From: a virus
Direction: 5' to 3' (one strand)
DNA length: 63,965 bases
IMG/VR virus record: IMGVR_UViG_3300045988_132111
Below the pieces are notes generated by a model. The model saw only the letters and a list, made by a program, of their open reading frames with translations. It did no database searches and was not told where the DNA came from. This document shows positions 27,464 to 61,070 of this stretch, piece by piece. Within the stretch, counting starts at the first letter, position 1. Each line of letters starts with the position of its first letter. The translations under genes and the position numbers were made by a program.

Positions 27464-27491
27464 CTATAAAAGTGTATGTAATTTTCGCACG
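27464..27491 (-). promoter_or_regulatory. promoter-like box P2
   Basis: Coding strand: CGTGCG-AAAATTACATACACTT-TTATAG, about 90 nt upstream of the tRNA 5' end. Confidence 0.45.
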
Positions 27492-27517
27492 TAATCTTTT
27501 GGGGCACGTTCGTAACA

Positions 27518-27895
27518 TCAGGTAATTAACTTGAAATGCCTCTCTTTATACTCTCTATTATTACGAGCTGCTCTAAGCACGCTCTTATGATCACCCTCAA
27601 TATTTCTTGCACATTCTCTAGCCGATTGAAATTCTTCGCCAGATTCCAAAACTTCAATTCGCTGTCCAGGACGTCCTATAATATCTAGTGGAGGATCTGA
27701 AGAATATCGTCCTCCCGAAACGACGATATGATAACCATGACATGTGTTGAATCCTGTTTCTCCTCTAACGACTTTCCCCAACCATTTAGCATCAACATTC
27801 AGTCTGTTTGCGCATGCTTGTATAGAATTAAACTCCTCGCCAGTCTCGACGATTCGAACTGGGATGCCGTCTCTTTTTGTATCAAACTCGTTCAC
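27518..27895 (-). CDS. DNA-binding-type protein with two ETGEEF-S..CA repeats
   Basis: Internal duplication: VRIVETGEEFNSIQACANRL and RIEVLESGEEFQSARECARNI. GTG start at 27895 after AAAGGAG. The track N-terminus runs over a terminator hairpin. Confidence 0.4.
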   Translation of the reverse strand: MNEFDTKRDGIPVRIVETGEEFNSIQACANRLNVDAKWLGKVVRGETGFNTCHGYHIVVSGGRYSSDPPLDIIGRPGQRIEVLESGEEFQSARECARNIEGDHKSVLRAARNNREYKERHFKLIT

Positions 27896-27931
27896 AAGAA
27901 ATATCACTCCTTTCGTGGTATAGCCAAAAAA

Positions 27932-27956
27932 AGAGCGCCTGTAAACCAAGCGCCCT
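27932..27956 (-). terminator. intrinsic terminator
   Basis: Coding strand: AGGGCGCTTG-GTTTA-CAGGCGCTCT followed by T8. Confidence 0.7.
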
Positions 27957-27975
27957 GATTTGGAATATAAAGTTT

Positions 27976-28251
27976 TTATTTTATTCTACGAGTCACAATT
28001 TGCTCCGGATGTTCTTTCGCGATCTTTTCGAAAATCTGGTTAAGGTTTGTTCCGTGGTTCTCGTCAAAGTAGTCCATCGTGACATGGAAAGATACAGCGC
28101 CGCCATCCCTAAAACCTTTACCATATGTCATTACGTTATAAAATTTCAAAACTGCTAACGCTCCACCTATAGCACCTCCGATGATTGCTCCTTTGTGCTT
28201 TTCATAGAATCCCTTAACTTTTTCTTTAAAGTGCTTCTCCTTTGTGCTCAT
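27976..28251 (-). CDS. small membrane protein
   Basis: 91 aa with a Gly-rich TM segment (GAIIGGAIGGALAVL). AGGAGG RBS. Confidence 0.6.
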   Translation of the reverse strand: MSTKEKHFKEKVKGFYEKHKGAIIGGAIGGALAVLKFYNVMTYGKGFRDGGAVSFHVTMDYFDENHGTNLNQIFEKIAKEHPEQIVTRRIK

Positions 28252-28291
28252 TTTTTAATCCTCCTGAAATATAAATGTAAACCTTATGGTT

Positions 28292-28319
28292 CCATAATAG
28301 AGCTTGTAAATATCACGAA
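28292..28319 (-). promoter_or_regulatory. promoter-like box P3
   Basis: Coding strand: TTCGTG-ATATTTACAAGCTCTA-TTATGG. Confidence 0.5.
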
Positions 28320-28330
28320 CCACTTACGCA

Positions 28331-28573
28331 TCATTCAACCATACTGTATGTAGGAAGTAAATCAGAATACTCACACTGCAGAGCATAGCAGAGATTCATA
28401 AATGTTCTCATGTTCGGCATTCGCTGCTTATTCAAATATCTACTCAACGCAGCCTCTGTAATATGAGCTTTTTTCGCCAACTGTCTTTGACTGATTCCAA
28501 CCTCGTCCATAATATCGCTAAGGTTGTCTGCAAAAATACAAATGAACTCAACTTCGCTAATGCTGTTTCGCAT
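28331..28573 (-). CDS. XRE-family HTH regulator
   Basis: ISQRQLAKKAHITEAALSRYLNKQRMP is a classic HTH_3. The ATG at 28573 follows TGGAGGAATTTT. The 80-aa track extension is a translation of the palindrome array. Confidence 0.75.
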   Translation of the reverse strand: MRNSISEVEFICIFADNLSDIMDEVGISQRQLAKKAHITEAALSRYLNKQRMPNMRTFMNLCYALQCEYSDLLPTYSMVE

Positions 28574-28594
28574 AAAATTCCTCCATTTAGTTTT

Positions 28595-28898
28595 TGGATA
28601 TCCAATATTATCCAAGCGGTAAGGGGTGGCAAAAGTCTTTATATATTTTATTTTTTTCTCACGTAATAATAAGGGGGTTACCTTTTGGATAAGTGGATAT
28701 CCAACAATTATCCCATTTTTAGTCCAAAATAGCCCTAAAATGGTGTTTTTTGACGATTTTGACCGAGTTTTTGGATATCCAATAATTATTACTTTAGTTT
28801 TTTGGATATCCAATAATTACCAGATGTCTTCGTCTTCCTCGTCAGTTTTTGGATATCCATTAATGTCATTATCATTTTCTTCTATTTCTGGATATCCA
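28595..28898. repeat. array of six copies of the 10-bp palindrome TGGATATCCA (extended consensus TTTTGGATATCCAATAATTAT)
   Basis: Copies at 28595, 28694, 28772, 28803, 28850 and 28889. The spacing is irregular. Four are intergenic and two lie inside the 3' half of the RHH gene. Confidence 0.9.
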
Positions 28899-29071
28899 AT
28901 AATTCCATCATTTTTCGATAAATAATTGAAAATTTTCAATCCTTTTCTCAAGACTTCTGCCTTAGACAAACCTTCCTTTTCCGCTAATTTTTTTAAAATG
29001 TAATTCTCCTCCTGCGACAGTCGAAGTCGATACTGTTCACATTTACCGTTAAATCCTTTCGGTCTTCCCAC
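28817..29071 (-). CDS. ribbon-helix-helix (CopG/Arc-like) protein
   Basis: RLRLSQEENYILKKLAEKEGLSKAEVLRKGL follows the RHH pattern. GTG start. Confidence 0.5.
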   Translation of the reverse strand: MGRPKGFNGKCEQYRLRLSQEENYILKKLAEKEGLSKAEVLRKGLKIFNYLSKNDGIIGYPEIEENDNDINGYPKTDEEDEDIW

Positions 29072-29074
29072 ATT

Positions 29075-29278
29075 CTATCTCCAAACCTTTCCGTTCGTCT
29101 TATCCTGAAGCACCACACGCCCCTGGATAACAAAACCATTCATTGCACAAATATTATGCAAATCTCTCATAGTCTTTTTAAATCTACGATAATCAATCTC
29201 ACGATCAGCTCTGTTTATCGCTCCACAGGCTGTAGGATCATCAAACCCCTCACTATTTCTATTACTGTGTCTTCCCAT
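29075..29278 (-). CDS. hypothetical protein
   Basis: 67-aa ORF on the coding strand. Confidence 0.5.
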   Translation of the reverse strand: MGRHSNRNSEGFDDPTACGAINRADREIDYRRFKKTMRDLHNICAMNGFVIQGRVVLQDKTNGKVWR

Positions 29279-29385
29279 TTCTTTTCTTCCTTTCTTTTAA
29301 ATAATCCAGAGAGTCCAAAGCCCGATCACCAATAATATCCCGAATAAGATACTAATCAATAAGTCTAACATCATAATTTATTCTT

Positions 29386-29592
29386 TCATTCCCTTTCCTT
29401 TAATATATCTGTGCCAAGAAATTCTTTTATCTTTCCAAGACACTCATCACACAAATCAATTCTACTACTGTTGAAACCTTGAAGGGTCTCGAAGCGTAAC
29501 CCAATTACAGTTCCCATAACCAAGTCATATCCATATTTCTTATTCTTATCATAATACTTTCCACACCTGTCGCATTTTCTTGCTATTGCCAT
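29386..29592 (-). CDS. zinc-ribbon protein
   Basis: CDRCGK..(~40 aa)..CDEC. The ATG at 29592 follows GGAGGAGTATTTGAAA. Confidence 0.55.
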   Translation of the reverse strand: MAIARKCDRCGKYYDKNKKYGYDLVMGTVIGLRFETLQGFNSSRIDLCDECLGKIKEFLGTDILKERE

Positions 29593-29663
29593 TTTCAAAT
29601 ACTCCTCCAAATATCAATAATAATTTTAATTGTCCATGACATCAATTAAAAAATTAAACATCC

Positions 29664-30035
29664 TCACACCATCACTTTCTCAGCCTTTAACCGGACTCCG
29701 CCATATTTCCAAAGCTTATCCTTAATCTCGTCCAAGCTCAGCTTACCGTCCTGCCATGCTTCGTAATATTCGATAACCTTATCTGTGAATCCCGGTAATT
29801 TCTGTGTATAACTCTTTTTCCAATATTCATCCATCAAAACACAAAGAGGTAGTCCAAGAAATAATGCAAGCGCAGTGTTGATTGCTTCATCTGCCGCCTC
29901 TCGCTTTGCTTCAGATATCTGTTTCTGCACAAGACTATTCACCATTTGATCCAGCTGAGCCTTAGTGAGGTTATATGTGATTGTGTGCTCTTTCTCAGAT
30001 TCTCTTTTCTGTCGTCGCATTTCAGCTCTGGTCAT
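29664..30035 (-). CDS. hypothetical protein
   Basis: 123-aa ORF. Confidence 0.55.
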   Translation of the reverse strand: MTRAEMRRQKRESEKEHTITYNLTKAQLDQMVNSLVQKQISEAKREAADEAINTALALFLGLPLCVLMDEYWKKSYTQKLPGFTDKVIEYYEAWQDGKLSLDEIKDKLWKYGGVRLKAEKVMV

Positions 30036-30036
30036 A

Positions 30037-30207
30037 TTAAAAGCCTCCGTTCAACAAATAAAAGCCAATCTCGATAAGAGCCGAAATAAGCATATATCCT
30101 AAACCAGTCCTAATTCTTTCGTTCGCATCTAGCTCTATCCCTACCATAAAAATAACGGACCAAATGATTCCAGTCCAGACTAGATATAATCCAATTGCTT
30201 TTGTCAT
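30037..30207 (-). CDS. small two-TM membrane protein (56 aa, not in the track)
   Basis: Own translation: MTKAIGLYLVWTGIIWSVIFMVG..YMLISALIEIGFYLLNGGF. The start overlaps the upstream stop (TGATG). Confidence 0.45.
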   Translation of the reverse strand: MTKAIGLYLVWTGIIWSVIFMVGIELDANERIRTGLGYMLISALIEIGFYLLNGGF

Positions 30208-31199
30208 CACATTTTCCTTTCTGGTTCAAGAAATTCTGGCACTCCAAGATTAAAGAAAGTATCATCTTTATAAATCCAAAAAGTACCGGTTTTCCTACTA
30301 TATTTATATATCTTGTCAGTGAGAAAATCCTCCTCTGGTGTCGCCTCCATGATAGTTTCTTTTAAGATTCGCTCCAAATCTTCCGGAGGATATAAACTAT
30401 CCACGCCATGTATCATTGCTTCATGGATGCTTGTGAATACTACATAAAAGTCTCCATTAAGCAAATAGGCTAATCTTTGAGCTACGCCTGGTAAAAATAT
30501 TGCGACTCCTCCATTTGTTTTTCTTACGGTGCTAAGACAATTTCCAACCTCATAATTATCTATTTGAAAATCATTATTCAAATCCATAAAGCATTCACCG
30601 CTGTAATCTGGATTGGATAACATTTCTTCCCATAAGTAAATACGAGGAGGAGAAATGAAATAGGTATTCAGAAGCGCCGTATCGAATACTGTCTCTGTGC
30701 TCAGTCCCCACTCATTCAGATTCTCTCGTCGTATTTTCATACTGGCGATCCGGTTTTCCGCCTTTCCAACTTGCATATACAACACCAACGCAATTTCCCC
30801 AATCACCTTGTATACGGCTTTGGACAGTTCTTTTTCATAGAGTTTTCTATTAAGAGGGCGGATGAATAAGTCCCCTTTTATTTTCTCATAATCGTTCAGA
30901 TTCTTTGTCCTCTCAAAAAATCCAGCTGCTCTTAATTTCAACACCTCTCCCGCCACTGTGTTTGCGATTGTTTCTACTGAAACACCATCTTCGTAATCTT
31001 CAAAAAGTTCCTCCGTGTGAATTCCACAGACTTCTTTTCCTGCCGCTGAAGCTCGGACTTCTACAAACAGTCGATCCCCATTAGGAGTCATTCCGTTTTC
31101 ATCTCGCTCTTCAAAGTAGATTTGTTTCTCCCCAAGTCCAAAACACTTCATTAATTCGTCTCTCAAACAGCCTACAAATTCTTCATACTTTTTGTTCAT
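30207..31199 (-). CDS. hypothetical protein (DUF5688-like, from memory)
   Basis: The ATG at 31199 follows AAGGAGG. The track start lies inside the terminator region. Confidence 0.55.
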   Translation of the reverse strand: MNKKYEEFVGCLRDELMKCFGLGEKQIYFEERDENGMTPNGDRLFVEVRASAAGKEVCGIHTEELFEDYEDGVSVETIANTVAGEVLKLRAAGFFERTKNLNDYEKIKGDLFIRPLNRKLYEKELSKAVYKVIGEIALVLYMQVGKAENRIASMKIRRENLNEWGLSTETVFDTALLNTYFISPPRIYLWEEMLSNPDYSGECFMDLNNDFQIDNYEVGNCLSTVRKTNGGVAIFLPGVAQRLAYLLNGDFYVVFTSIHEAMIHGVDSLYPPEDLERILKETIMEATPEEDFLTDKIYKYSRKTGTFWIYKDDTFFNLGVPEFLEPERKM

Positions 31200-31234
31200 A
31201 CAAAAATCCTCCTTTTCGTGGTGTGAAATTAAAA

Positions 31235-31266
31235 ATAGAGCCACAGTATTTCTACCGTAGCCCTAT
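31235..31266 (-). terminator. intrinsic terminator with GAAA tetraloop
   Basis: Coding strand: ATAGGGCTACGGTA-GAAA-TACTGTGGCTCTAT followed by TTTTTAATTT. Confidence 0.7.
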
Positions 31267-31301
31267 TCGAGATCTGAACTTCAGTTTGGACTTTACTTCT
31301 C

Positions 31302-31937
31302 CTAACCCAACAAAGCCGTATCAATAATCTGGAAATTTGCCCGGTGGATATAAAGAGCCTTACCATCAATCATTAATTTCGTCATCTTTGGTAAGTCGTC
31401 AGGAACTTTCCAATACACTTCGTCCCCAGAATATGCAGTAATCGGCTGTCCGAGCTGTGATTTGATAACCACGACCCTTGATTTTCCGAAATAATTTTTA
31501 TATTCATTAATGATTCCGGAAACGAAGGTGTTGTCTAACAGTGCCCCATCGGTGTGACTATAAATATCACTCTGGGTGAAATCAGCGTCCGGTATCAGTC
31601 CATCCTGCTCGAATATACAGGTGTCACCACAGCTCTGAATCTGCTCTCCATCAATATTAATTGTAATTACGGATGATATATCGTAATTTGTGATAATACT
31701 ACCGCTACTGTCATAGCTCTTGGATTTAACTTTATTGCCTTTCACATTAATCTTGTCGCCCACGGTGGTCATTACTTTATTTCCGTAGTTATCATATGTA
31801 CGGATAGTGTAACCATTACCGGTAAGATTCCCCTGAATCTCATTAATTGTATCTTCTAATGCCGCGCACCCAGTAACTCCGATAGTCAGGCAGATACATA
31901 ACATAGCCGCAATAATAATTCTGAATTTTTTCTTCAT
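31302..31937 (-). CDS. lipoprotein
   Basis: MKKKFRIIIAAMLCICLTIGVTGC is a signal peptide plus lipobox. Confidence 0.75.
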   Translation of the reverse strand: MKKKFRIIIAAMLCICLTIGVTGCAALEDTINEIQGNLTGNGYTIRTYDNYGNKVMTTVGDKINVKGNKVKSKSYDSSGSIITNYDISSVITINIDGEQIQSCGDTCIFEQDGLIPDADFTQSDIYSHTDGALLDNTFVSGIINEYKNYFGKSRVVVIKSQLGQPITAYSGDEVYWKVPDDLPKMTKLMIDGKALYIHRANFQIIDTALLG

Positions 31938-31959
31938 AGTACTTCATTCCTCCATGCGA

Positions 31960-32106
31960 TCAAAAAAGTAATAATATAAACGCATATAATACAGTGAGTA
32001 AAAACACAGCCCACCACTGCCAAGTGGTTATAGCGTATCCCATACTATGTATAATAATGCTTTCTAATGCCAAAACCAAACCACCAATAACTGTTTTCAT
32101 AGTCAT
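31960..32106 (-). CDS. small membrane protein (48 aa, not in the track)
   Basis: Own translation: MTMKTVIGGLVLALESIIIHSMGYAITTWQWWAVFLLTVLYAFILLLF. Confidence 0.4.
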   Translation of the reverse strand: MTMKTVIGGLVLALESIIIHSMGYAITTWQWWAVFLLTVLYAFILLLF

Positions 32107-32179
32107 TGCTACTCCTTATCGTATCTTCTATCAGCTGGTATCGCTCGTCTTGCATCAGCCTCCATCTCCGCTATTGTTA

Positions 32180-32961: not shown

Positions 32962-33107
32962 TTCTTTTCCTCCTCTACAAGTTTTCTTATAACAATGCCT
33001 TTCTCCGCATATCTCATGCCTTCCCAGACATTCAACAAATCAAAGAAATCTTTGAGACTGATTTTTCTCTCCGCGAGTTCCTCGATGAAATCTTTATTGT
33101 TCGTCAT
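32958..33107 (-). CDS. small hypothetical protein (49 aa, not in the track)
   Basis: Own translation: MTNNKDFIEELAERKISLKDFFDLLNVWEGMRYAEKGIVIRKLVEEEKK. Confidence 0.4.
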   Translation of the reverse strand: MTNNKDFIEELAERKISLKDFFDLLNVWEGMRYAEKGIVIRKLVEEEKK

Positions 33108-37993: not shown

Positions 37994-38248
37994 TTACTTA
38001 AAGAACTGTCGCATTACAAATTTCTGATACCTTTTAGTCACCTCATACGCCGCATACTCTGTTGTGAAGCCATTAAGGACCCGATTTGAAAAATCCGTAA
38101 ATGATACGCCAAAGTTATTTCCATCCTTTCTTTTGATTTCAACAACCAGACTGTCATTTTCGTTAACCTTTACAAATATACCGCCTTTAATGACTTCTTT
38201 AAGTTTTTCGTATAAATGGTTACTAAACAATCGTTCGTAATCTAACAT
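37994..38248 (-). CDS. hypothetical protein
   Basis: The ATG at 38248 follows GAGGAGGAACAG. Box P4 lies inside the track's N-terminal extension. Confidence 0.55.
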   Translation of the reverse strand: MLDYERLFSNHLYEKLKEVIKGGIFVKVNENDSLVVEIKRKDGNNFGVSFTDFSNRVLNGFTTEYAAYEVTKRYQKFVMRQFFK

Positions 38249-38273: not shown

Positions 38274-38301
38274 TCATAAGAGGAACTGTTTTCTACGCGA
38301 T
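38274..38301 (-). promoter_or_regulatory. promoter-like box P4
   Basis: Coding strand: ATCGCG-TAGAAAACAGTTCCTC-TTATGA followed by GAAAAATG. Confidence 0.5.
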
Positions 38302-42194: not shown

Positions 42195-42222
42195 TCATAA
42201 CAGAGACTGTATTTTGCGCGAA
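42195..42222 (-). promoter_or_regulatory. promoter-like box P5
   Basis: Coding strand: TTCGCG-CAAAATACAGTCTCTG-TTATGA followed by GAAAAATATTTCAAGGAGG. Confidence 0.55.
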
Positions 42223-42239
42223 TATTGGATAAACGAAAG

Positions 42240-42268
42240 AAAGAGCCTCAGCTATTTCTAGCCAAAGC
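42240..42268 (-). terminator. 29-bp repeat copy 3
   Basis: Identical 29-mer. A 12-bp stem is possible here (GAGCTTTGGCTA/TAGCTGAGGCTC). Confidence 0.65.
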
Positions 42269-42278
42269 TCCACTTCTT

Positions 42279-42578: not shown

Positions 42579-42606
42579 TCGTAATAGAGACTGTATTTTA
42601 CGCGAA
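42579..42606 (-). promoter_or_regulatory. promoter-like box P6
   Basis: Coding strand: TTCGCG-TAAAATACAGTCTCTA-TTACGA. It overlaps the polymerase stop codon. Confidence 0.5.
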
Positions 42607-50398: not shown

Positions 50399-50426
50399 CC
50401 ATTAAAGTGGTTGCTTTTTTCGCGAG
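50399..50426 (-). promoter_or_regulatory. promoter-like box P7
   Basis: Coding strand: CTCGCG-AAAAAAGCAACCACTT-TAATGG. Confidence 0.45.
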
Positions 50427-51437: not shown

Positions 51438-51456
51438 TTATGTATACCTCCTTTCA

Positions 51457-52287
51457 TTAAAGCATCTGTAATTTTGGCGAATTTGGATTGTTGGCATAAT
51501 ACTCCTCTTCGCTTTCATAATAGTCATCATAGTTTACCCGCGGCTCAAATGGCATCTCGATGATATAAAACTCAGTACCGTCTTTGAGTTTTGCCCTACG
51601 ATGATTAAATTCAATCCAATATTCTCCTTCATCAGTTGGCGCCCAGCCAAGAACCTCTCCAAAGTCGGTAGAGGATAAACCAAGAAAAGAATATAATTCA
51701 TTTAGAATAACACTTCCGCCCAATGCGTAGTTTCGGTTTAAATGGTATTCGGCATTTTGTACTTGTTCCACCGTAGCTCTAAAGAATCGCTTCGAATATT
51801 CTTCGTAGAATAATACCGGTCTTCCAACCGATTTATCTGAAGATATGTCACAATCACTGCATAAATAAGACGCTTGAATGTGCACTTTTTCAGCCTTTTC
51901 TACAGCAATAGCCTCAATTATCCTCTGATCCGCTTCCTCTCCATATAATTCTTTCAACTTTCTACGATAATCTTTGTAAGACTGATCTAGCAAGGCGTAT
52001 GCACTCGCCATAGATGCTTGCTGGTGCTGGTTAAGAATTTGTGCTCCGCAGATGCAGAATATAGTCGCCGAACCGGTCAATATCACAGGCAAATATGTAA
52101 GAGCCACTGTCTCGGTTTTCTCTAGTACAGTAAGCTCCTCACCTTTCTCCAACTCAGCGTTAGCTAGCAGCCGCTTTGCTTTTGGTGCTGCTTTGGCAGA
52201 TAACACTGCAGTTGCCACAACATCAGCGCATCCAAGTACAGTCAGTATGGTGGATGAGTTTCTCTTGAAAAATAACTTTGGCTTCAT
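51457..52287 (-). CDS. TM-anchored protein, paralog family member 3
   Basis: N-terminus RNSSTILTVLGCADVVATAVLSAKAAPKA. C-terminus VILNELYSFLGLSSTDFGEVLGW. Confidence 0.65.
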   Translation of the reverse strand: MKPKLFFKRNSSTILTVLGCADVVATAVLSAKAAPKAKRLLANAELEKGEELTVLEKTETVALTYLPVILTGSATIFCICGAQILNQHQQASMASAYALLDQSYKDYRRKLKELYGEEADQRIIEAIAVEKAEKVHIQASYLCSDCDISSDKSVGRPVLFYEEYSKRFFRATVEQVQNAEYHLNRNYALGGSVILNELYSFLGLSSTDFGEVLGWAPTDEGEYWIEFNHRRAKLKDGTEFYIIEMPFEPRVNYDDYYESEEEYYANNPNSPKLQML

Positions 52288-53106: not shown

Positions 53107-53146
53107 AGTTTTTCTCCTTTTCATATGAAGTGGTTAAAAGCTAAAA

Positions 53147-53215
53147 GAAACAGTGTGGGGCTCGAACCCACGACCCTTCGCTTGTGGAATGCTCTCCCAA
53201 CTGAGCTAACTGTTT
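53147..53215 (-). tRNA. tRNA-like gene (69 nt) with a truncated anticodon arm
   Basis: Sequence: AAACAGT-TA-GCTC-AGTTGGGA-GAGC-A-TTC-CACAAGC-GAA-GGGTC-GTGGG-TTCGAGC-CCCAC-ACTGTTT-C. The acceptor, D and T arms are canonical. Only 19 nt lie between the D and T arms, where 22-23 are expected. No U33. Confidence 0.45.
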
Positions 53216-53217
53216 CT

Positions 53218-53245
53218 CCATTAAAGGAATTGAAAATATCGCGAA
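53218..53245 (-). promoter_or_regulatory. promoter-like box P8 (drives the tRNA-like gene)
   Basis: Coding strand: TTCGCG-ATATTTTCAATTCCTT-TAATGG. It ends 2 nt before the tRNA-like 5' end. Confidence 0.5.
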
Positions 53246-53386: not shown

Positions 53387-53414
53387 TCACTAAAGAAAGT
53401 GTAAATATCGCGAA
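53387..53414 (-). promoter_or_regulatory. promoter-like box P9
   Basis: Coding strand: TTCGCG-ATATTTACACTTTCTT-TAGTGA. Confidence 0.5.
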
Positions 53415-53805: not shown

Positions 53806-53833
53806 TCATAATAGAAAGTGTTATCTCCGCGAA
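53806..53833 (-). promoter_or_regulatory. promoter-like box P10
   Basis: Coding strand: TTCGCG-GAGATAACACTTTCTA-TTATGA. Confidence 0.55.
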
Positions 53834-54054: not shown

Positions 54055-54082
54055 TCATAATAGAAATTGTAAAATTGGCGAA
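54055..54082 (-). promoter_or_regulatory. promoter-like box P11
   Basis: Coding strand: TTCGCC-AATTTTACAATTTCTA-TTATGA. Confidence 0.55.
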
Positions 54083-54085
54083 AAG

Positions 54086-54110
54086 AAAGAGCCCTTGTTA
54101 AGAGCCCTCT
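54086..54110 (-). terminator. hairpin terminator
   Basis: Coding strand: AGAGGGCTCTT-AAC-AAGGGCTCTTT, an 11-bp stem with G-U pairs, followed by a T-rich tract. Confidence 0.55.
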
Positions 54111-54379
54111 CTTAATTCTTTAATTTTAGCAACAAATATCTCCGCCTCTTGAATAGTTAGCGCCATAGGCATTTGATTCGTATGTCCTAACCAATCTTTT
54201 ACTCTTGTTATTGTTTGCGAAAATATTTTACAACATTCAACAGGCGTATCATCATCTTCCCATTCGATGATCACCTCCTGGTCCTGTTTTTTATTTTCAT
54301 ATACAATATAACAACAAGATAAATCAGATACACGAATCTCATATCCTAAAGATTCTATTTGTTTATCAATATCGGTCAT
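54098..54379 (-). CDS. hypothetical protein
   Basis: The ATG at 54379 follows TAGGAGGG. The track start at 54409 lies inside box P12. Confidence 0.55.
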   Translation of the reverse strand: MTDIDKQIESLGYEIRVSDLSCCYIVYENKKQDQEVIIEWEDDDTPVECCKIFSQTITRVKDWLGHTNQMPMALTIQEAEIFVAKIKELREGS

Positions 54380-54405: not shown

Positions 54406-54433
54406 TCATAACACCCCATGTAATTTTCGCTAA
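54406..54433 (-). promoter_or_regulatory. promoter-like box P12
   Basis: Coding strand: TTAGCG-AAAATTACATGGGGTG-TTATGA. Confidence 0.5.
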
Positions 54434-55107: not shown

Positions 55108-55135
55108 TCATTATAGGAGCTGTAAAAATAGCGAA
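55108..55135 (-). promoter_or_regulatory. promoter-like box P13
   Basis: Coding strand: TTCGCT-ATTTTTACAGCTCCTA-TAATGA. Confidence 0.5.
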
Positions 55136-55140
55136 AAAAT

Positions 55141-55171
55141 AAGAGCCTACGTAGAATTTACGTAAGCCCTT
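55141..55171 (-). terminator. hairpin terminator
   Basis: Coding strand: AAGGGCTTACGTA-AATTC-TACGTAGGCTCTT followed by ATTTTTT. Confidence 0.65.
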
Positions 55172-55183
55172 ATGTGGTGTTAT

Positions 55184-55597: not shown

Positions 55598-55598
55598 G

Positions 55599-56039
55599 TT
55601 AATTCTCCGCCATCCATGAAGCAGAAATCTCTTCTACCACAAGAGATCCCCATGTCACATCTAAATATTCTCCGTCATCAATGTTCATCATTTCAGAGTC
55701 CCCGTCTTCATAACTAACAGAACCCTGAACTGCATTTCCCTTAGCATCATGATCTTCTTTGGATGAATATACGTTGAAGCACGATGAATCATATCCCTTG
55801 CAGCCAAACACTTTATACTGTCCCGCTTTGATATCTTTTCCAACTTCATATGTTCCCTGTGGTAAAACATTATCCCCGCCACGATCGGCAATTTGAGCAT
55901 TAATCTCATCTCTCAATGCAACCAATTCTTCAGTGCTCATAGAATCATAGTCAATTGTACTCTGCTCAGATGCCATTACAGGAGAAGCAATTAACCCAAT
56001 AGCCAAAATCATAGAAGTAATAATAGTTTTTTTCATCAT
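55599..56039 (-). CDS. secreted protein
   Basis: N-terminal signal peptide MMKKTIITSMILAIGLIASPVMASE. Confidence 0.6.
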   Translation of the reverse strand: MMKKTIITSMILAIGLIASPVMASEQSTIDYDSMSTEELVALRDEINAQIADRGGDNVLPQGTYEVGKDIKAGQYKVFGCKGYDSSCFNVYSSKEDHDAKGNAVQGSVSYEDGDSEMMNIDDGEYLDVTWGSLVVEEISASWMAEN

Positions 56040-56096
56040 AAGTGGACCCTCCGTTTTTTTTTTAATAATTTTCTAACAAAAATATTATCACATTTA

Positions 56097-56105
56097 CCCC
56101 CCCCC
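56097..56105. repeat. C9 (coding strand G9) homopolymer in a promoter spacer
   Basis: Counted directly in the sequence. It lies between a TAGACG (-35-like) element and TGTGATAAT (extended -10, 56084-56092). Confidence 0.9.
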
Positions 56106-56131
56106 GTCTATATTTTTCACATAAAAAGATA

Positions 56132-56158
56132 AAGACGCCAAGTTTCCTCAGCGCCTTG
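56132..56158 (-). terminator. GAAA-tetraloop terminator (repeat family B, copy 1)
   Basis: Coding strand: AAGGCGCTGAG-GAAA-CTTGGCGTCTT followed by TATCTTTTT. Confidence 0.65.
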
Positions 56159-56166
56159 TTCCAATA

Positions 56167-56550
56167 TTACTTTCTCTTGAAGAGATTATTAATGAAATTT
56201 CTACCTGCCATTGTGGTGACTGTACCGACCTCTTCAAACTTCAATGTCTTGAGTGTCCCCCAGATGGTTACAACAGTTCCGACGCCAGATATAACTACTG
56301 TTATGACATTTTTAACCTTCCGATCTCTAATCTCAGCCTCAATCTGTCTGTACTTCAGTTCCAAATCTTCATTTCGATTCGCCTGTCGTTCGTCTTGATC
56401 TCTGTTGATCTTATCCATCTCGATTGCTTTGTCCATCAGTTTCACGATTCCATCTGTTGTCACTTTGTACTTGTCTGAGCCAAGCTCAAGTGTACTAAGC
56501 CCTTGGAGCTCATCCTTGATCTCATCCTGCAATAACTGTTCGATTTCCAT
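56167..56550 (-). CDS. coiled-coil protein with a C-terminal TM segment
   Basis: 127-aa ORF. Confidence 0.55.
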   Translation of the reverse strand: MEIEQLLQDEIKDELQGLSTLELGSDKYKVTTDGIVKLMDKAIEMDKINRDQDERQANRNEDLELKYRQIEAEIRDRKVKNVITVVISGVGTVVTIWGTLKTLKFEEVGTVTTMAGRNFINNLFKRK

Positions 56551-56577
56551 TTTGAAATCCTCCTTTATGTAATATTC

Positions 56578-56605
56578 TCATAAGACGCCATGTTATTTTT
56601 GCGAA
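56578..56605 (-). promoter_or_regulatory. promoter-like box P14
   Basis: Coding strand: TTCGCA-AAAATAACATGGCGTC-TTATGA. Confidence 0.5.
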
Positions 56606-56814
56606 GACTGTTCTTCTTTATATATGATAATTCTTTTCTTTTTAGAAAGGTCGCCTTGAGTTGGTATACGAACATTTATGTTGTAAAATCCAGTATCTTC
56701 ATCATCATCATATGGTACTACTGTGAAATATCCGTATCCCGATTTGTGATAAAAAAATAAAAGCGTTAATACCACTCCCAAAGCAACTCCAATAAGTAAA
56801 ATAAGATAGTTCAT
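56593..56814 (-). CDS. small membrane protein
   Basis: The ATG at 56814 follows GGAGGAAAAGAAA. MNYLILLIGVALGVVLTLLFF. Confidence 0.55.
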   Translation of the reverse strand: MNYLILLIGVALGVVLTLLFFYHKSGYGYFTVVPYDDDEDTGFYNINVRIPTQGDLSKKKRIIIYKEEQSSQK

Positions 56815-56963
56815 TTTCTTTTCCTCCATTGTGAATATTTTAATAATAAGGTATCTATTTCGCTTATAACAAGTTAATTCACCCCCCTCTTTTTTTTACA
56901 TGATATAAATATAAACCGTAATATTGTTGCCTCAGTACGGTTTTTATCCTAGAAAAAAGTAAA

Positions 56964-56984
56964 ACGCCAAGTTTCCTCAGCGCT
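56964..56984 (-). terminator. GAAA-tetraloop terminator (repeat family B, copy 2)
   Basis: Coding strand: GCGCTGAG-GAAA-CTTGGCGT followed by TTTACTTTTTT. The core gcgctgaggaaacttggcgt is shared with 56132..56158. Confidence 0.65.
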
Positions 56985-57216
56985 TCACCATGAAATCGAA
57001 TAACTTTAATTCAACTTTCCGTTCTTCTGATTTATTTTCCACGGTAATGTCATGCAACTTTGCGATCAAATCCATTTCATCCTTGTATATGCTATGAATC
57101 ATATTCAGATTTCTATTCAAATCATCCTCTGTTTTAGCTTTATACATGGAATCAACAAGCTTTGTGTATTTTTCGTTTGCTGTTGCCACCATTGCGTTAA
57201 AATTTACAGAATCCAT
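56977..57216 (-). CDS. hypothetical protein
   Basis: 79-aa ORF. AAGGAGG RBS. Confidence 0.55.
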   Translation of the reverse strand: MDSVNFNAMVATANEKYTKLVDSMYKAKTEDDLNRNLNMIHSIYKDEMDLIAKLHDITVENKSEERKVELKLFDFMVKR

Positions 57217-57249
57217 TTAAAAAATCCTCCTTAAAATTTTATCTATTCC

Positions 57250-57277
57250 CTATAAAAGAGAAAGATAAAATCGCGAA
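57250..57277 (-). promoter_or_regulatory. promoter-like box P15
   Basis: Coding strand: TTCGCG-ATTTTATCTTTCTCTT-TTATAG. Confidence 0.4.
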
Positions 57278-57306
57278 TAATTTTACTGGCAAAAAATTTT
57301 CATATA

Positions 57307-57315
57307 TGCTAGAAT
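57307..57315 (+). promoter_or_regulatory. extended -10 (TGCTAGAAT) for the plus-strand pair
   Basis: TGnTAGAAT lies 30 nt upstream of the ATG at 57345. Only a weak -35 is present (TGGCAA). Confidence 0.45.
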
Positions 57316-57344
57316 AGCCGTACTACAAAAAGGATGGTTTTGTT

Positions 57345-57608
57345 ATGACAACTGAAGAAATCAATGCAATTCATGATTACGGTGGTGGTATCTGTCCAGA
57401 ATGCGAAGTGGAAATGGATCAGATAGAAGAAGGTGGGCTTTTAAAATTTGTCTGCCCGGAATGCGGTTACACTGTAGACTGCTCGGAATATGAATACGAA
57501 AGCGATTCTCGCGAACCATCAGACGACGAAATTCCTGGTGGATGTGTTGCTTGCGGTTGTCCAGCATATCCTGACTGTATGACAGCTTGTAGCAGATTTG
57601 ACGATTAA
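57345..57608 (+). CDS. double zinc-ribbon protein
   Basis: CPECEV..(15 aa)..CPECGY, plus a C-terminal CVACGCPAYPDCMTAC. Confidence 0.6.
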   Translation: MTTEEINAIHDYGGGICPECEVEMDQIEEGGLLKFVCPECGYTVDCSEYEYESDSREPSDDEIPGGCVACGCPAYPDCMTACSRFDD

Positions 57609-57633
57609 ACTAGAAAAGAAAGGATATAATAAA

Positions 57634-57807
57634 ATGACAGAAACAGAAATTCAGATGTTTATTGAAACTATGGAAGATCTCGGAGACGAGTGGACACCAG
57701 AGCAGGTAAAAACGATGTACGGCGATTACACCTACGAAGCTGCAGTCAAAGAACGCAAACAACACATAGATATGCAATTAAATAACTTAGCGGCGCTCGT
57801 TAAATAA
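57634..57807 (+). CDS. small acidic hypothetical protein
   Basis: I prefer the ATG at 57634 to the TTG at 57598. Confidence 0.5.
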   Translation: MTETEIQMFIETMEDLGDEWTPEQVKTMYGDYTYEAAVKERKQHIDMQLNNLAALVK

Positions 57808-57828
57808 GTCCAGGCAAAAAAAGATAAA

Positions 57829-57849
57829 GGAGCTGTAATATGCAGCCCC
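57829..57849. terminator. bidirectional terminator between convergent genes
   Basis: GGAGCTG-taatatg-CAGCCCC has one mismatch. It is flanked by A7 upstream and T6 downstream. Confidence 0.6.
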
Positions 57850-57858
57850 TTTTTTCTT

Positions 57859-58152
57859 TTACCAATGTGTAATAATCATCATGGAGTCATCCTCGGGTTC
57901 TCTAATAACGTCAATGTCAATCTTTTTACTTTCGAGCTCAATTTCTACGATAGTCCATGGCTCGTTAGGTTTTGCATTCAATTTACCCGTAATTTTTCCA
58001 TTAGGTAAAATCACTACAAATCCCCAACGTCCCAAATGAGTGCGTTCAATAAATTGTAACTCGATTATAACATCGTTCTTGTCGTCACCATTGAGATCCA
58101 ACTGGAACTCTACAAATTTTGTATCTTTTGGTACCGAAATTGTTTGTCGCAT
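57859..58152 (-). CDS. hypothetical protein
   Basis: 97-aa ORF. Confidence 0.55.
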   Translation of the reverse strand: MRQTISVPKDTKFVEFQLDLNGDDKNDVIIELQFIERTHLGRWGFVVILPNGKITGKLNAKPNEPWTIVEIELESKKIDIDVIREPEDDSMMIITHW

Positions 58153-58177
58153 ATGTATATGCCTCCTTTATCTTTTC

Positions 58178-58205
58178 TCACAATAGCAAATGCGATTTTC
58201 ACGAA
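58178..58205 (-). promoter_or_regulatory. promoter-like box P16
   Basis: Coding strand: TTCGTG-AAAATCGCATTTGCTA-TTGTGA. Confidence 0.45.
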
Positions 58206-58625
58206 TTATTCCCGCGCTTTGTTCAGCAGCCAGAAGAACCTCCGGTAGGCTGTATAGTACACGTCTTTGCAGCAAGGGATATTCATTCTAGCTTTCAAAA
58301 TATCATAGCTCCATCCTTCTGTAACGCCTTTTAATATGTACTCTGCCAGCTCCGGATCAGTTTCTTTTGCTACTTTCTCAATCATCTCCATACGGATAGA
58401 ATAATAATGCTTGAGTATAGCAATTCGCTCAGTAGGGTTTGATACATGACGCGCCTTCCCAAATGCGTTCAATGCCTCACGTCTACTTAACATCCCATTC
58501 AGAGAAGAATACGCCTTCTTCCAGATTGGGTATTGCAGACAAAAATGTTTCAATTCGTAATGTCGATGTTTCTCGATCCAGTATGGATTCTTCTCCGATA
58601 CCTCTGCTCTTATAATATTTCCCAT
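58206..58625 (-). CDS. putative transcriptional activator (sigma-70 region-4 / ArpU-RinA-like)
   Basis: 139 aa from the ATG at 58625 (AAAGGAGG RBS). The C-terminal GWSYDILKARMNIPCCKDVYYTAYRRFFWLL is HTH-like. Size and context fit phage late activators. Confidence 0.4.
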   Translation of the reverse strand: MGNIIRAEVSEKNPYWIEKHRHYELKHFCLQYPIWKKAYSSLNGMLSRREALNAFGKARHVSNPTERIAILKHYYSIRMEMIEKVAKETDPELAEYILKGVTEGWSYDILKARMNIPCCKDVYYTAYRRFFWLLNKARE

Positions 58626-58706
58626 TAGAACATCGCCTCCTTTCAACACTAATTCTAGGTTAAAAGGTCGAAATTGTTAAAACAAAGTCAGTGGAAAAAT
58701 TTACCA

Positions 58707-59021
58707 TTACAATCTCGGTTTAATGCACTGCTTCTTCCAACGTTTCATTGTTTCCTCGCAAGGGAAATCTTCATAGCCTAAAGTATCTGGACCGATAAGT
58801 CCTTCCACTACTCCATCTATGATATCTGCTTCATAATGCTTGAAAGGATATACATATTCTGAGAGATCTCGATGAATAGTCTTGCACTTAGGACATTTAT
58901 AGCGCTCTATAGCAACAAGCTTCTTTGAATGATTCTTACCTCTTACGATTCGTTTCACAGTATCGTATCGCTTCAATTTTTCTTTACAGTTAGGGCAGTA
59001 TTTGTCTATGGTGTTCGCCAA
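58707..59021 (-). CDS. zinc-ribbon protein
   Basis: CPNCKE..(~25 aa)..CPKCKT. TTG start. Confidence 0.5.
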   Translation of the reverse strand: MANTIDKYCPNCKEKLKRYDTVKRIVRGKNHSKKLVAIERYKCPKCKTIHRDLSEYVYPFKHYEADIIDGVVEGLIGPDTLGYEDFPCEETMKRWKKQCIKPRL

Positions 59022-59140
59022 CCTTTCATATAATCCGTACTATAACCATATCATTTACCGCCAAAGGAGCACATATACATAAAAAGAGCACCGGTAGATT
59101 TTTCCACTAATGCTCTTATAAGTTCAATTCGATTTTCCTT

Positions 59141-59363
59141 TTTACTACACCATTTACTACACCATTTTTACACCAAAATACGATATTTTGCGATACTTTA
59201 CGATAGGCATAAAAGCCCGCAAACCCGCATAAATACTGGATTTTTAGGAATTTTTAAACTGCAATGTATATTCTTAACTTTTTCTTAAAGATTAGTTCCA
59301 AAAAGCCAGTAAAATCAAGGGTTTTCAGACTATAGGTCTTTTTACTACACCACTTTTACACCA
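59141..59363. other. candidate attP region with arm-type repeats
   Basis: TTTACTACACCA occurs at 59141, 59153 and 59341. TTTTACACCA occurs at 59166 and 59354. CGATA occurs at 59181, 59191 and 59201, exactly 10-bp phased. Confidence 0.5.
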
Positions 59364-60493
59364 TTTTGATTTTCCATCTTTTTCATCTCATCAAATAAAG
59401 TCTCATCTGAAACATGACAGTATAAATCCATTGTCATCTGTAATGAGCTGTGACCTAATATTTTTTGAAGTGTTTTAGGATTCATCCCATTTTCTATAGC
59501 TCTTGTTGCGAAAGTATGTCTAAATGCATGTGGAGTGAATTTTTTTATACAAATTCCATCAGCTTCCATTTTATTTAGTATCTCGTTTATTGCGTCAATT
59601 GCTGACACCTCCTGAAAAGGTTTGCCACTGCTTGTAGGGAATACCAGGTCTTTGAAATCCCAACATTTGCGTTTTTTAATTCTAGTTTCGTTTAATAGCT
59701 TTTGACGTATAAGCGCATCAATACATACATTTGTAAGTGGAATTAATCGTTTTCCATTAAATGTTTTCGGATCATGAGCTTCGAAATAGTAGCCATTTTC
59801 TCCATGTATATGACACATCGTTCTTCTTACGTACAGTGCTCGTTTTTCGAAATCTATATCACTCCAGTACAGCCCTTTTAGTTCCCCGATGCGCATTCCA
59901 GTTTCAAGAGCTACAACGAATAAATTATAGTATCTATGGCCTTTAGCGTATGTAAGGAATAATTTAGTTTCTTCAATTCCAAGAACTCGTCGCTCTTTTG
60001 GTGTCTCTTTATCAATTTTAGTTATAAGATCTTTTGCAAAATTCCGCGGTACCAAACCATTTCTTTTCGCTTCCATAAATAAACCATTCAAAACTACTTT
60101 GACCCTGACTCTCTGGTGATTGCTTTTCAGTTTATTCAACTCCGATTGCAATATCACAGGGTTTAGCTTCTGTATTTTTTCACGACCGATTCTCTCTTTT
60201 ATAGATTTATACGCTATATCGTAGGCGCTTAATGTTGTATTTCTACAATTTCCTTTACATGTGGTTATCCAAACCTTATACCATTCGTCTAATGTCATGT
60301 TACTTTTTACCAGATTTACTCCATTGTCATCAGCAGTCTGGGCTTTTCGCATTTGGGTTCTGAGATTGTTTAGGTTCTTATCATATAAAGTTTCCCTTTT
60401 TCCAAAGCGATTTGTGAATCTAGCTTGATATAAGCCGTCTTGTCTTTGAGTGATACCGATACCCAGTTCTTTTCCTTTTAGTGATTTTCCCAT
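59345..60493 (-). CDS. int: tyrosine integrase
   Basis: HAFRHTFATRAI and LGHSSLQMTMDLYCH form the R..HxxR..Y catalytic signature. The N-terminus is SAM-like. Confidence 0.9.
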   Translation of the reverse strand: MGKSLKGKELGIGITQRQDGLYQARFTNRFGKRETLYDKNLNNLRTQMRKAQTADDNGVNLVKSNMTLDEWYKVWITTCKGNCRNTTLSAYDIAYKSIKERIGREKIQKLNPVILQSELNKLKSNHQRVRVKVVLNGLFMEAKRNGLVPRNFAKDLITKIDKETPKERRVLGIEETKLFLTYAKGHRYYNLFVVALETGMRIGELKGLYWSDIDFEKRALYVRRTMCHIHGENGYYFEAHDPKTFNGKRLIPLTNVCIDALIRQKLLNETRIKKRKCWDFKDLVFPTSSGKPFQEVSAIDAINEILNKMEADGICIKKFTPHAFRHTFATRAIENGMNPKTLQKILGHSSLQMTMDLYCHVSDETLFDEMKKMENQNGVKVV

Positions 60494-60551
60494 ATGTACT
60501 CCTTTCCGTAATGGGGAAAATCCAAATTGAACTTACCCCAAATATACCATT

Positions 60552-60737
60552 TTAAAAGATATTTCGCAATAACCAAGCATCGACTTTATCCCTGTGAGCA
60601 TATAATCGGTTTCCTATTCGAACAGTAAAACCATTATCAGGATTATGCAACAACTCTCTCGCTTTGGTTTCTCCTATACTCAAATATGCACACAAGTCTT
60701 TCACAGTAAGTAACTTCTTTTCTTCTTTATTTTCCAT
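60552..60737 (-). CDS. excisionase-type HTH protein
   Basis: LLTVKDLCAYLSIGETKARELL. The ATG at 60737 follows TGGAGG. Confidence 0.55.
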   Translation of the reverse strand: MENKEEKKLLTVKDLCAYLSIGETKARELLHNPDNGFTVRIGNRLYAHRDKVDAWLLRNIF

Positions 60738-60813
60738 TTTGACTACCTCCATTCTAGTTTTGATAGTACCAACGGAGACCGTCGCCTGCGTACGGAAAAT
60801 TAAAAGAAAAAGT

Positions 60814-60833
60814 GAGAGTCATTGCTGACCCTC
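60814..60833 (-). terminator. GCAA-tetraloop hairpin
   Basis: Coding strand: GAGGGTCA-GCAA-TGACTCTC followed by ACTTTTTCTTTT. Confidence 0.6.
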
Positions 60834-61010
60834 ATCTTTCTCTTCACACACACTGAAACAGAAACCAAATACCAAGAATGCAACCATAAAGAACATTACA
60901 CCAGCATAGGCTGACCCAAGCATCACCAACACGAACGTAACTATATACGTCATTATGACAGCTTCCAACCACACTAATTCTTTTATAATTTTTTCATTCT
61001 TTTTATTCAT
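60819..61010 (-). CDS. small membrane protein
   Basis: 63 aa with two TM segments. It has its own box P17 and a terminator. Confidence 0.55.
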   Translation of the reverse strand: MNKKNEKIIKELVWLEAVIMTYIVTFVLVMLGSAYAGVMFFMVAFLVFGFCFSVCEEKDEGQQ

Positions 61011-61042
61011 AATCTAATCCTCCTTCAATAGGTATGTTTTTC

Positions 61043-61070
61043 TCATAAAGGAGCATGTGCTTTTCGCGAA
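61043..61070 (-). promoter_or_regulatory. promoter-like box P17
   Basis: Coding strand: TTCGCG-AAAAGCACATGCTCCT-TTATGA. The left element is part of the perfect 14-bp palindrome CTTTTCGCGAAAAG. Confidence 0.55.

Follow-up and report, generated by a model that had tools for sequence, protein, structure and literature searches.

Several phages with RNA polymerases (RNAPs) of their own are described together with promoters or promoter-like motifs. The late promoter of the non-virion RNAP (nvRNAP) of phiKZ is the short sequence (-3)TATG(+1), which overlaps the start (PMC7618050), and Thermus phage P23-45 encodes two two-barrel RNAPs, gp96 (virion) and gp64 (non-virion), together with AT-rich and GC-rich promoter motifs. 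For YonO of SPbeta, the only characterised bacterial-virus member of its clade, the promoter sequence and the need for a cofactor were left unresolved (PMC5467207). Here we describe a family of seventeen boxes of the form TTCGCG-N16-TTATGA in IMG/VR virus record IMGVR_UViG_3300045988_132111 (63,965 nucleotides (nt); hereafter the window, that is, the whole stretch analysed), together with a 970-amino-acid (970-aa) polymerase encoded in the same genome that probably reads them. The boxes most likely represent a so-far undescribed promoter of an unusual single-protein polymerase, as judged from sequence comparison. On this reading they would belong to the phage-polymerase-specific promoters and would serve an uncharacterised branch of two-barrel polymerases fused to helix-turn-helix (HTH) modules. 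We found no description of the box motif in the open-access literature searched, and surveys of Arthrobacter (PMC5513430) and Rhodococcus (PMC13313380) phages make no mention of promoters or of the polymerase for the clusters concerned.

The initial annotation had proposed at least 17 boxes between positions 27464 and 61070, and a scan of the window returned exactly this number over the same interval. Specifically, a position weight matrix (PWM) trained on the clear copies, with the box at 50399..50426 left out of the training, identified 17 sites scoring 25-44, all on the minus strand, while the next best site on either strand scored 5.6. Enrichment over chance, which had been set as a check, was pronounced: exact TTCGCG-N16-TTATGA was found three times vs. 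0.01 expected, and sequences with up to two mismatches 20 times vs. 5.9 +/- 2.5 expected, with 18 of these 20 on the minus strand. The window boxes share the consensus TTCGCGAAAATTACAnnnnCTnTTATGAGAAAA, with fixed spacing and no insertions or deletions. The boxes, and the two tRNA genes that two of them precede, are as follows (the second coordinate of each box is its first base on the minus strand).

Box 1 (P1, CGTGCGAAAATTACATACACTTTTATAG), 27464..27491, minus strand: heads a leader hairpin, tRNA-Met, nuclease genes, the RNAP gene and the ~30-kb late operon; PWM score 26.7
Box 2, 28292..28319, minus strand: before a 91-aa gene (27976..28251), start codon 40 nt past the box; PWM score 31.1
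Box 3, 38274..38301, minus strand: heads a ~9-kb multigene unit starting at 38248; PWM score 34.2
Box 4, 42195..42222, minus strand: exact match, heads a unit with a 411-aa helicase; preceded by a hairpin at 42236..42276
Box 5, 42579..42606, minus strand: overlaps the final codons of the 1403-aa primase/polymerase gene and precedes a 93-aa gene; Shine-Dalgarno sequence from box position 31; PWM score 36.3
Box 6, 50399..50426, minus strand: heads the replication unit (DUF6353 genes, 1403-aa D5-like primase/polymerase); PWM score 25.1 although not used in training
Box 7, 51454..51481, minus strand: over the stop codon of the upstream open reading frame (ORF); Shine-Dalgarno sequence from box position 29
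Box 8, 53218..53245, minus strand: right before tRNA-Leu, which starts at box position 30; after a terminator hairpin
Box 9, 53387..53414, minus strand: before a hydrophobic mini-ORF of ~23 aa; after a terminator; top PWM score, 43.7
Box 10, 53806..53833, minus strand: exact match, before a 107-aa gene; after a terminator
Box 11, 54055..54082, minus strand: before a 53-aa membrane ORF; abuts a hairpin at 54083..54113
Box 12, 54406..54433, minus strand: before a 93-aa gene; found by the PWM
Box 13, 55108..55135, minus strand: after a terminator at 55139..55173; Shine-Dalgarno sequence from box position 29
Box 14, 56578..56605, minus strand: before a 127-aa gene; found by the PWM
Box 15, 57250..57277, minus strand: TTATAG variant, before a 79-aa gene; the sole copy without C14-A15
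Box 16, 58178..58205, minus strand: just past the stop codon of a 147-aa gene and before a 97-aa gene, an arrangement also seen in Faecalibacterium phage FP_oengus
Box 17 (P17), 61043..61070, minus strand: exact match, before a 63-aa gene; fused to the late-operon terminator hairpin at 61070..61110
tRNA-Leu(CAA), 53146..53216, minus strand
tRNA-Met(CAT), 27298..27372, minus strand

The boxes stand before nearly every transcription unit of this virus of gut bacteria; they are intergenic or overlap just the last few codons of the upstream ORF, and a Shine-Dalgarno sequence and start codon follow 15-40 nt past the box, the exceptions being the two tRNA-linked boxes and the one before the 23-codon mini-ORF. 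Two boxes had been thought to drive RNA genes, and two do precede tRNAs: tRNA-Leu begins 2 nt past the box at 53218..53245, and tRNA-Met 92 nt past the end of P1. Likewise, at least six boxes were said to follow directly on a hairpin with a T-tract, and we found seven such hairpins, with folding energies of -15 to -22 kcal/mol. Terminator-like sites are enriched in the box region (26 found vs. 11.6 +/- 3.1 expected) and sigma-70-like sites are not (71 found vs. 60 +/- 7 expected). Position, strand bias, comparative genomics (below) and the lack of a conserved A at -11 (below) all support a promoter family of non-sigma-70 geometry, read by a factor that the phage encodes and, with terminators, punctuating monocistronic units, and on this sequence evidence we consider it very probable that the boxes are promoters.

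Boxes of the same kind accompany homologues of the polymerase gene in related phages. The window PWM was run over 1.10 Mb from 80 IMG/VR loci that have the polymerase gene at their centre (54-100% identity), and all 160 boxes that it returned lay on the polymerase strand; shuffled sequence gave none. A further 80 loci taken from species-representative genomes (1.44 Mb) gave 179 boxes on the polymerase strand vs. one on the other, with at least one box in 77 of the 80 loci, including prophages of [Ruminococcus] torques, Hungatella, Blautia, Cuneatibacter, Enterocloster and Lachnospira. Pooled, the two sets show 339 boxes vs. 1 by strand in 160 loci (2.5 Mb), that is, an oriented motif. Four cultured phages with polymerases 37-47% identical to that of the window yielded the same architecture on blind counting of over-represented gapped dyads. 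In FP_oengus, automatic per-genome motif refinement drifted to a false motif, and the scan with the window matrix is the valid result for this phage.

Faecalibacterium phage FP_oengus: ~14 copies, gACGCGAAAAAtaCAGnnTnCTTTATGGA (scan with the window PWM)
Lactococcus phage 1706: 12 copies, CACAtgTTTTACAnnnnCTATAGTAGAAAG (blind dyads)
Streptomyces phage DrGrey: 11 copies, cTCGCAnattTTACAcGnCCTATAaTGAGACCCcTA (blind dyads)
Arthrobacter phage Dynamite: 10 copies, tCGCGTAAATTACAaGGGcTATAATGA (blind dyads)
Gordonia phage Gravy: 11 copies, tCGCAgaaAaTACACGtCCTATAATGAGACCCC (blind dyads)

In the cultured phages the boxes lie on the gene strand only, before small genes, and the register of the blocks is identical across genomes of 34-59% guanine plus cytosine (GC). 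Overall, the box architecture is present in six of six cultured or reference phages examined that encode a polymerase homologue, across two bacterial phyla, and no box cluster was found in phage MT835477 or in the SPbeta segment, both of which are without the polymerase homologue. An identical register across such hosts and GC contents requires a conserved reader.

The general architecture is CGCG, N7, ACA, N4, CT, N, T[T/A]ATG and purines, a signal of 30 bases. Among 126 distinct boxes, C3, G4 and C5 are conserved in at least 94%, C14, A25 and T26 in 99-100%, and A15, C20, T21, T23 and G27 in 85-98%, and positions 28-32 are at least 96% purine. The CA in the spacer, which had been counted in 15 of the 17 window copies, is indeed conserved, although the correct count is 16 of 17 for C14-A15; the palindrome noted at P17, CTTTTCGCGAAAAG, is genuinely palindromic. 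This pattern also bears on whether the boxes might instead act at the RNA level (as a processing site, a stabiliser of the 5' untranslated region or a translation signal) or be repeated DNA spread by recombination. The boxes are strand-specific and stand near ribosome-binding sites, as such readings would have it, yet we find them hardly credible, given that the motif sits directly past terminators, and would thus seldom be transcribed from upstream, that it also precedes tRNAs and that no conserved pairing was seen in it. Further, positions 16-19 and 22 and the flanks are free to vary while the blocks stay fixed, which points to a DNA motif read by a protein rather than to recent duplication.

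The spacing of the box elements differs from that of a sigma-70 promoter. Only 5 bp, instead of the required 17 +/- 1 bp, separate the TTTACA-like from the TATTAT-like element, and TTCGCG, with 14 bp between it and TATTAT and 16 bp between it and TTATGA, matches TTGACA at TT only. Other sigma-70 registers, with TTTACA as the -35 element and a downstream -10 element or with TTCGCG as the -35 element, were sought by eye and by scan and gave no consistent hexamer. Position 22 would correspond to the -11 A, which is near-invariant in sigma-70 promoters and has to be flipped out by sigma region 2, but of the 126 distinct boxes 35% have A there and 48% have T (A in 6 of the 17 window boxes; T throughout FP_oengus); T26 is conserved in 99%. 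The likely start site can be approached from what follows the box. The 5' ends of tRNAs fall at box position 30 in the window (tRNA-Leu) and 28 in FP_oengus, the Shine-Dalgarno sequence begins at box positions 29-31 in three window units and in many relatives, and the 5' arm of the leader hairpin past P1-type boxes takes nucleotides from positions 27-31. Taken together, these place the predicted +1 at about G27/A28; that is, transcription would start inside the TTATGA element, and the start 5-10 nt downstream of TTATGA expected by the initial annotation is unlikely. The tRNA and Shine-Dalgarno starts lie 2-5 nt past the would-be -10 hexamer, which, as indirect evidence, would not leave the ~6-8 nt of a sigma-70 start. 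With the G of TTATG numbered as +1, CGCG occupies -24..-21, ACA -14..-12 and CT -7/-6, followed by T(-4), A(-2), T(-1) and G(+1) and then an all-purine initial transcribed tract at +2..+6.

Alternatively, the boxes might be host sigma-A promoters that use the -10-like TATTAT/TATAAT alone, with CGCG...ACA serving as the operator of a regulator from the phage, a role that the HTH domains of the 970-aa protein might fill. In actinobacteria a -10 element often suffices as a promoter, the actinophage versions of the box contain a perfect TATAAT, and the 970-aa protein is annotated by sources as a CsgD-family regulator. We nonetheless consider this explanation very unlikely, since the would-be -11 A is not conserved in Firmicutes versions, G27 and the purine tract are conserved though a sigma-70 promoter has no need of them, and a start 6-8 nt past position 26 would fall inside the tRNAs and cut Shine-Dalgarno sequences. 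In addition, the catalytic DFDGD loop and many core residues of the 970-aa protein are invariant, which argues for an active enzyme and not a mere DNA binder.

The proteins to be weighed as readers of the boxes are the following.

970-aa single-polypeptide two-barrel RNAP, 23532..26444, minus strand: full-length match to phrog_4291 ("RNA-dependent RNA polymerase"), E = 0
90-aa acidic protein, 23260..23532, minus strand: directly past the polymerase gene; phrog_4303, 2.6e-30
147-aa ORF, 58206..58649, minus strand: earlier taken as a sigma/ArpU-like ORF of 139 aa; phrog_11237, function unknown

The 970-aa protein carries a GADFDGD catalytic loop at residues 538-544, with the DxDGD motif by which membership in the two-barrel superfamily is judged, and neither 10 homologues, the most distant of them 41% identical, nor 39 closer ones show any change at D540, F541, D542, G543 or D544. 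Its HTH modules lie at about residues 105-160 (N-terminal) and 935-969 (C-terminal), the latter resembling sigma region 4 (Pfam Sigma70_r4/r4_2 and HTH; TIGR02937 below threshold). A Foldseek search with an AlphaFold model ranked QDE-1 first (E = 4.8e-4, probability 1.0) and RDR2 next (0.95-0.99), followed by Pol II Rpb1, archaeal RNAP and bacterial beta'; phmmer and hmmsearch comparisons with PDB sequences returned HTH matches only. As judged from the motif and the modelled fold, the 970-aa ORF is a member of the two-barrel superfamily, probably in the branch that also holds YonO (YonO/QDE-1-like). The same protein was flagged previously as a putative RNAP by HHpred, and as the signature of a supercluster of Arthrobacter, Gordonia, Rhodococcus, Microbacterium and Streptomyces phages, Lactococcus 1706-like phages and FP_oengus, by Koert et al., who did not address promoters (bioRxiv 10.1101/842583). 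All phages of the supercluster have in common, besides structural and replication proteins, the HTH/RNAP protein and a single hypothetical protein of small size (bioRxiv 10.1101/842583). Residues 25-40 of the polymerase (HYG..R.SGRYPWGSG) are also invariant in all homologues of both phyla, in a part of the protein where model confidence is low.

The 90-aa neighbour, which is the small hypothetical protein of the supercluster as found in the window, belongs to a family of ~85-90-aa proteins (phrog_4303) with the motif LTT.DNPYNPF...W...D...GY and 11 invariant residues, present in six of six phages compared (in the relatives at L081:31391-31660, L089:5175-5435, L092:5649-5897, L094:37535-37792 and L095:37128-37376). 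The polymerase gene is invariably followed by it, in phages ranging from those of gut Firmicutes to those of Streptomyces, and it may be a partner or cofactor of the polymerase.

Three candidate readers had been named initially: the RNAP-like ORF, its HTH modules and the sigma/ArpU-like ORF. We favor the first together with its HTH modules, because the 970-aa protein is a true two-barrel homologue and the sole transcription-related protein common to all box-bearing phages; on present sequence evidence, the boxes are probably the cognate promoters of the phage's own 970-aa polymerase. The sigma/ArpU-like candidate fared less well. The 147-aa ORF has no Pfam or NCBIfam family at E <= 1 and no profile match to sigma-70 region 4, ArpU or RinA, and jackhmmer recovered it in the window, a near relative, FP_oengus and MT835477 only, the last being a phage with neither the polymerase nor boxes. 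We set it aside as a sigma/ArpU-type reader, as it has no profile support and no homologue in the distant box-bearing phages, namely Lactococcus 1706, Streptomyces DrGrey, Arthrobacter Dynamite and Gordonia Gravy. The pair MT835485 (boxes and a 147-aa homologue, no polymerase) and MT835495 (polymerase, few boxes) was considered as a natural experiment and is uninformative, because the two are halves of one phage type.

It could also be that host RNAP is redirected to the boxes by a small phage sigma-like protein or activator (the 147-aa ORF or a non-homologous equivalent), and that the phage polymerase transcribes something else (e.g., only the late operon). Several features would fit: the 147-aa gene is preceded by the best sigma-70-like site of the region (TTAACA-N17-TAGAAT, 58652..58680) and directly followed by a box, as in FP_oengus; the first molecules of phage polymerase would be accounted for; the terminators are of the bacterial type; and the related YonO of SPbeta serves late genes only (PMC5467207). 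We consider such redirection unlikely, however. The 147-aa ORF shows the limited similarity and distribution just described, with its sole homologue outside the group in a box-less phage, and a 30-bp motif that stays unchanged from Streptomyces to Lachnospiraceae needs a conserved reader, for which no such small protein is shared. Moreover, the late operon showed no promoter motif of a second kind, and P1 itself is a box.

Returning to the 970-aa polymerase as the reader, several points weigh against it. The polymerase gene itself lies behind box P1, so the first enzyme molecules would need another source, which could be read-through, a weak host promoter or delivery in the virion. The units end at hairpin and U-tract terminators typical of bacterial RNAP, and the perfect TATAAT of the actinophage boxes could be used by host polymerase. 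Every member of the supercluster carries the polymerase, so that the co-occurrence has no box-bearing, polymerase-less control. The AlphaFold model is of moderate quality (mean pLDDT, the predicted local distance difference test score, 69), with a template modelling (TM) score of ~0.2, such that the fold similarity is supportive, not conclusive, and hhalign against YonO, with a single-sequence template, aligns the PH..F...D.DGD region without significance, at a probability of 0.3%. Finally, no similar box was found in the yonN-yonK gap of SPbeta, which contains the YonO start site, and the 25 kb around it (best gene-strand score 1.9); YonO is too distant to inform on the HTH-fused polymerase family.

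Under the favored model, the two HTH modules of the polymerase would recognise the upstream blocks, spaced one helical turn from each other; melting of the T-A-T stretch and initiation at G/A would fall to the catalytic core, possibly assisted by the 90-aa neighbour protein, with no need for a separate sigma factor. Sixteen boxes would drive short early/middle units closed by hairpin and U-tract terminators. The seventeenth, P1, would drive the leader hairpin, tRNA, two nuclease genes, polymerase gene and ~30-kb late operon; with the polymerase gene behind P1, polymerase production would be subject to positive feedback. Host polymerase would serve the units with sigma-70-like sites, that is, the integrase, the 147-aa gene and two moron-like genes. 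Consistent with such a division of labour between host and phage polymerase, these units have no box and carry sigma-70-like sites, although consensus matches are weak evidence: the integrase has TTGCGA-N17-TATATT with an upstream TG, and two moron-like units have TGnTATAAT-like elements (the latter by eye). In its strongest form, the model states that a single polypeptide, made of a two-barrel core and a sigma-like HTH, alone recognises the ~30-bp CGCG-N7-ACA-N4-CT-N-TWATG-purines and starts at the G of TATG, and that the pair is nearly unchanged between Actinobacteria and Firmicutes and runs nearly the whole of phage transcription, not just the late genes; we regard the case for this full statement as evenly balanced.

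How the boxes compare with described promoters follows from these features. Like the promoters of T7, T3 and SP6, they are long (~25-30 bp), conserved and strictly oriented sequences, one per unit, paired with terminators, they run up to or past the start with a T/A-rich melting segment before a purine, and the phage enzyme proposed to read them would do so without a sigma factor. The SP6 promoter has the sequence ACACTATAGAAG, which the Lactococcus 1706 box (ACACTATAGTAG) resembles. Unlike T7, however, the enzyme is of the two-barrel and not the T7 (Pol I-like) fold, and the box is discontinuous, with spacers free to vary between its four short blocks. The phiKZ nvRNAP is also a two-barrel phage polymerase, and its TATG corresponds to the invariant T.ATG here (-4..+1) at the predicted +1; the phiKZ enzyme is, however, multisubunit, with a consensus of 4-5 bp and no upstream elements, whereas the blocks here reach to -24 and the polymerase is a single polypeptide with fused HTH. 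P23-45 shares with our system single-chain two-barrel polymerases, each with a conserved motif of its own whose presence tracks that of the enzyme among relatives. Its motifs differ, its enzymes are without HTH fusions and its starts were mapped experimentally, whereas those proposed here derive from the sequence. YonO is likewise a single-polypeptide two-barrel DNA-dependent RNAP of a temperate Firmicutes phage, encoded just upstream of the late genes, although it serves one late-operon promoter of unknown sequence and has no detectable HTH fusions. With sigma-70 promoters the box has in common hexamers similar to TTTACA and TATAAT, and the polymerase ends in an HTH that resembles sigma region 4; yet only 5 bp separate the hexamers, conservation of the -11 A is lacking, and the predicted start is ~1 nt past the hexamer vs. 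~7.

How single-chain two-barrel RNA polymerases find their promoters is an open question, for which the box offers a testable consensus and a predicted start. The consensus covers a much larger, previously uncharacterised branch of the two-barrel family, in which the fused HTH could replace sigma. The prediction is also directly testable in cultured members, which include Faecalibacterium FP_oengus, phages of the Lactococcus 1706 type and over 200 actinophages kept in teaching collections. The polymerase-bearing lineage is abundant in the human gut (>8000 protein clusters), and if the model is true, it would explain how gene expression is laid out in a supercluster of phages that is very common among gut Lachnospiraceae and would allow transcription units to be annotated in thousands of genomes. 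It would also mean a self-contained orthogonal transcription system, comparable to T7 but on a cellular-type fold, and provide a compact polymerase-promoter pair for orthogonal expression in Gram-positive bacteria.

The late operon spans ~30 kb, from ~27.4 kb down to 1 and then from 63965 to 61119, includes tail fibre and holin genes and terminates at the hairpin fused to P17. Boxes were said to be absent from it apart from a divergent P1. The absence was confirmed by the PWM across the ~30 kb, whereas the treatment of P1 as an outlier did not stand: P1 is the best-conserved box across relatives, lying ~0.9-1 kb upstream of the RNAP gene in nearly all of them, and in Arthrobacter phage Dynamite a box lies just upstream of the endonuclease gene. 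Downstream of P1 the order is leader hairpin, tRNA-Met, VRR-NUC-like endonuclease, Cas4-like exonuclease, polymerase and late genes.

P1 leader hairpin and U-tract, 27410..27461, minus strand: -23.9 kcal/mol, z = -6.3; its 5' arm is the purine tract at the 3' end of the box

Every relative has such a long hairpin and U-tract directly past its P1-type box (equivalents in L003, L010, L030, L039, L068, L076 and L081); these differ in sequence and keep the shape, and the element looks like a promoter-proximal terminator or attenuator before the polymerase gene and late operon. No box was found within 10 kb downstream of the polymerase gene in relatives, with the exception of one Lachnospira hominis prophage (L110), which has four boxes there, two of them near-identical, at 14732..17527; this suggests box-driven cassettes inserted into the late region.

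The window is the genome of a temperate phage, with a tyrosine integrase. A 54-nt tandem repeat at its far end (63666..63965) continues into the first 55 bases (1..55), and hence the window is a complete, circularly permuted genome whose break lies within a tail gene that contains repeats. Its genes lie on the minus strand and further include a D5-like primase/polymerase, a helicase and two tRNAs. Close relatives reside as prophages in Lachnospiraceae and other Clostridia, among them Anaerobutyricum hallii, [Ruminococcus] torques, Hungatella hathewayi and Blautia faecis, and megablast of 20 kb of the window against cultured phages gave no match. The sole plus-strand island, 57345..57810, holds a Cys-rich, zinc-ribbon-like ORF of 87 aa and an ORF of ~60 aa, and is bounded by a bidirectional terminator (57826..57852) and the box at 57250..57277, with a sigma-70-like site with upstream TG nearby at 57286..57315. 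Plus-strand ORFs within 152..1382 have no family matches and are probably not genes.

A few other observations concern individual units. A near-identical terminator (GCGCTGAGGAAACTTGGCG) occurs on the minus strand in two units, at 56132..56157 and 56958..56989, and within the ~100 nt past each copy there is a G-run and a TGnTATAAT-like extended -10 element, with no box. These units precede a lipoprotein-like gene (55599..56039) and a small membrane-protein gene, and look like morons expressed by host polymerase. Between the integrase and the 147-aa gene, a DUF6431 zinc-ribbon protein (58707..59021, minus strand; E = 6e-24) is encoded without a box of its own. At least seven copies of the palindrome TTGGATATCCAA, often as TTTTTGGATATCCAATAAT, lie at 28576..28915, in and around a small ribbon-helix-helix-like gene (28817..29071) and upstream of an XRE-type HTH gene; the cluster could be an operator array or a replication origin. 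The tail-fibre gene at 62001..63581 (minus strand) encodes both a Shufflon_N-like segment and, at the C-terminus, an intramolecular chaperone domain of the Peptidase_S74 type. The T7 promoter core is CTCACTATAGGG, and some boxes of Streptomyces phage DrGrey (L091; e.g., 26157..26192) contain CCCTATAGTGAG, its exact reverse complement, which points away from the genes and probably reflects convergence on a TATA melting segment.

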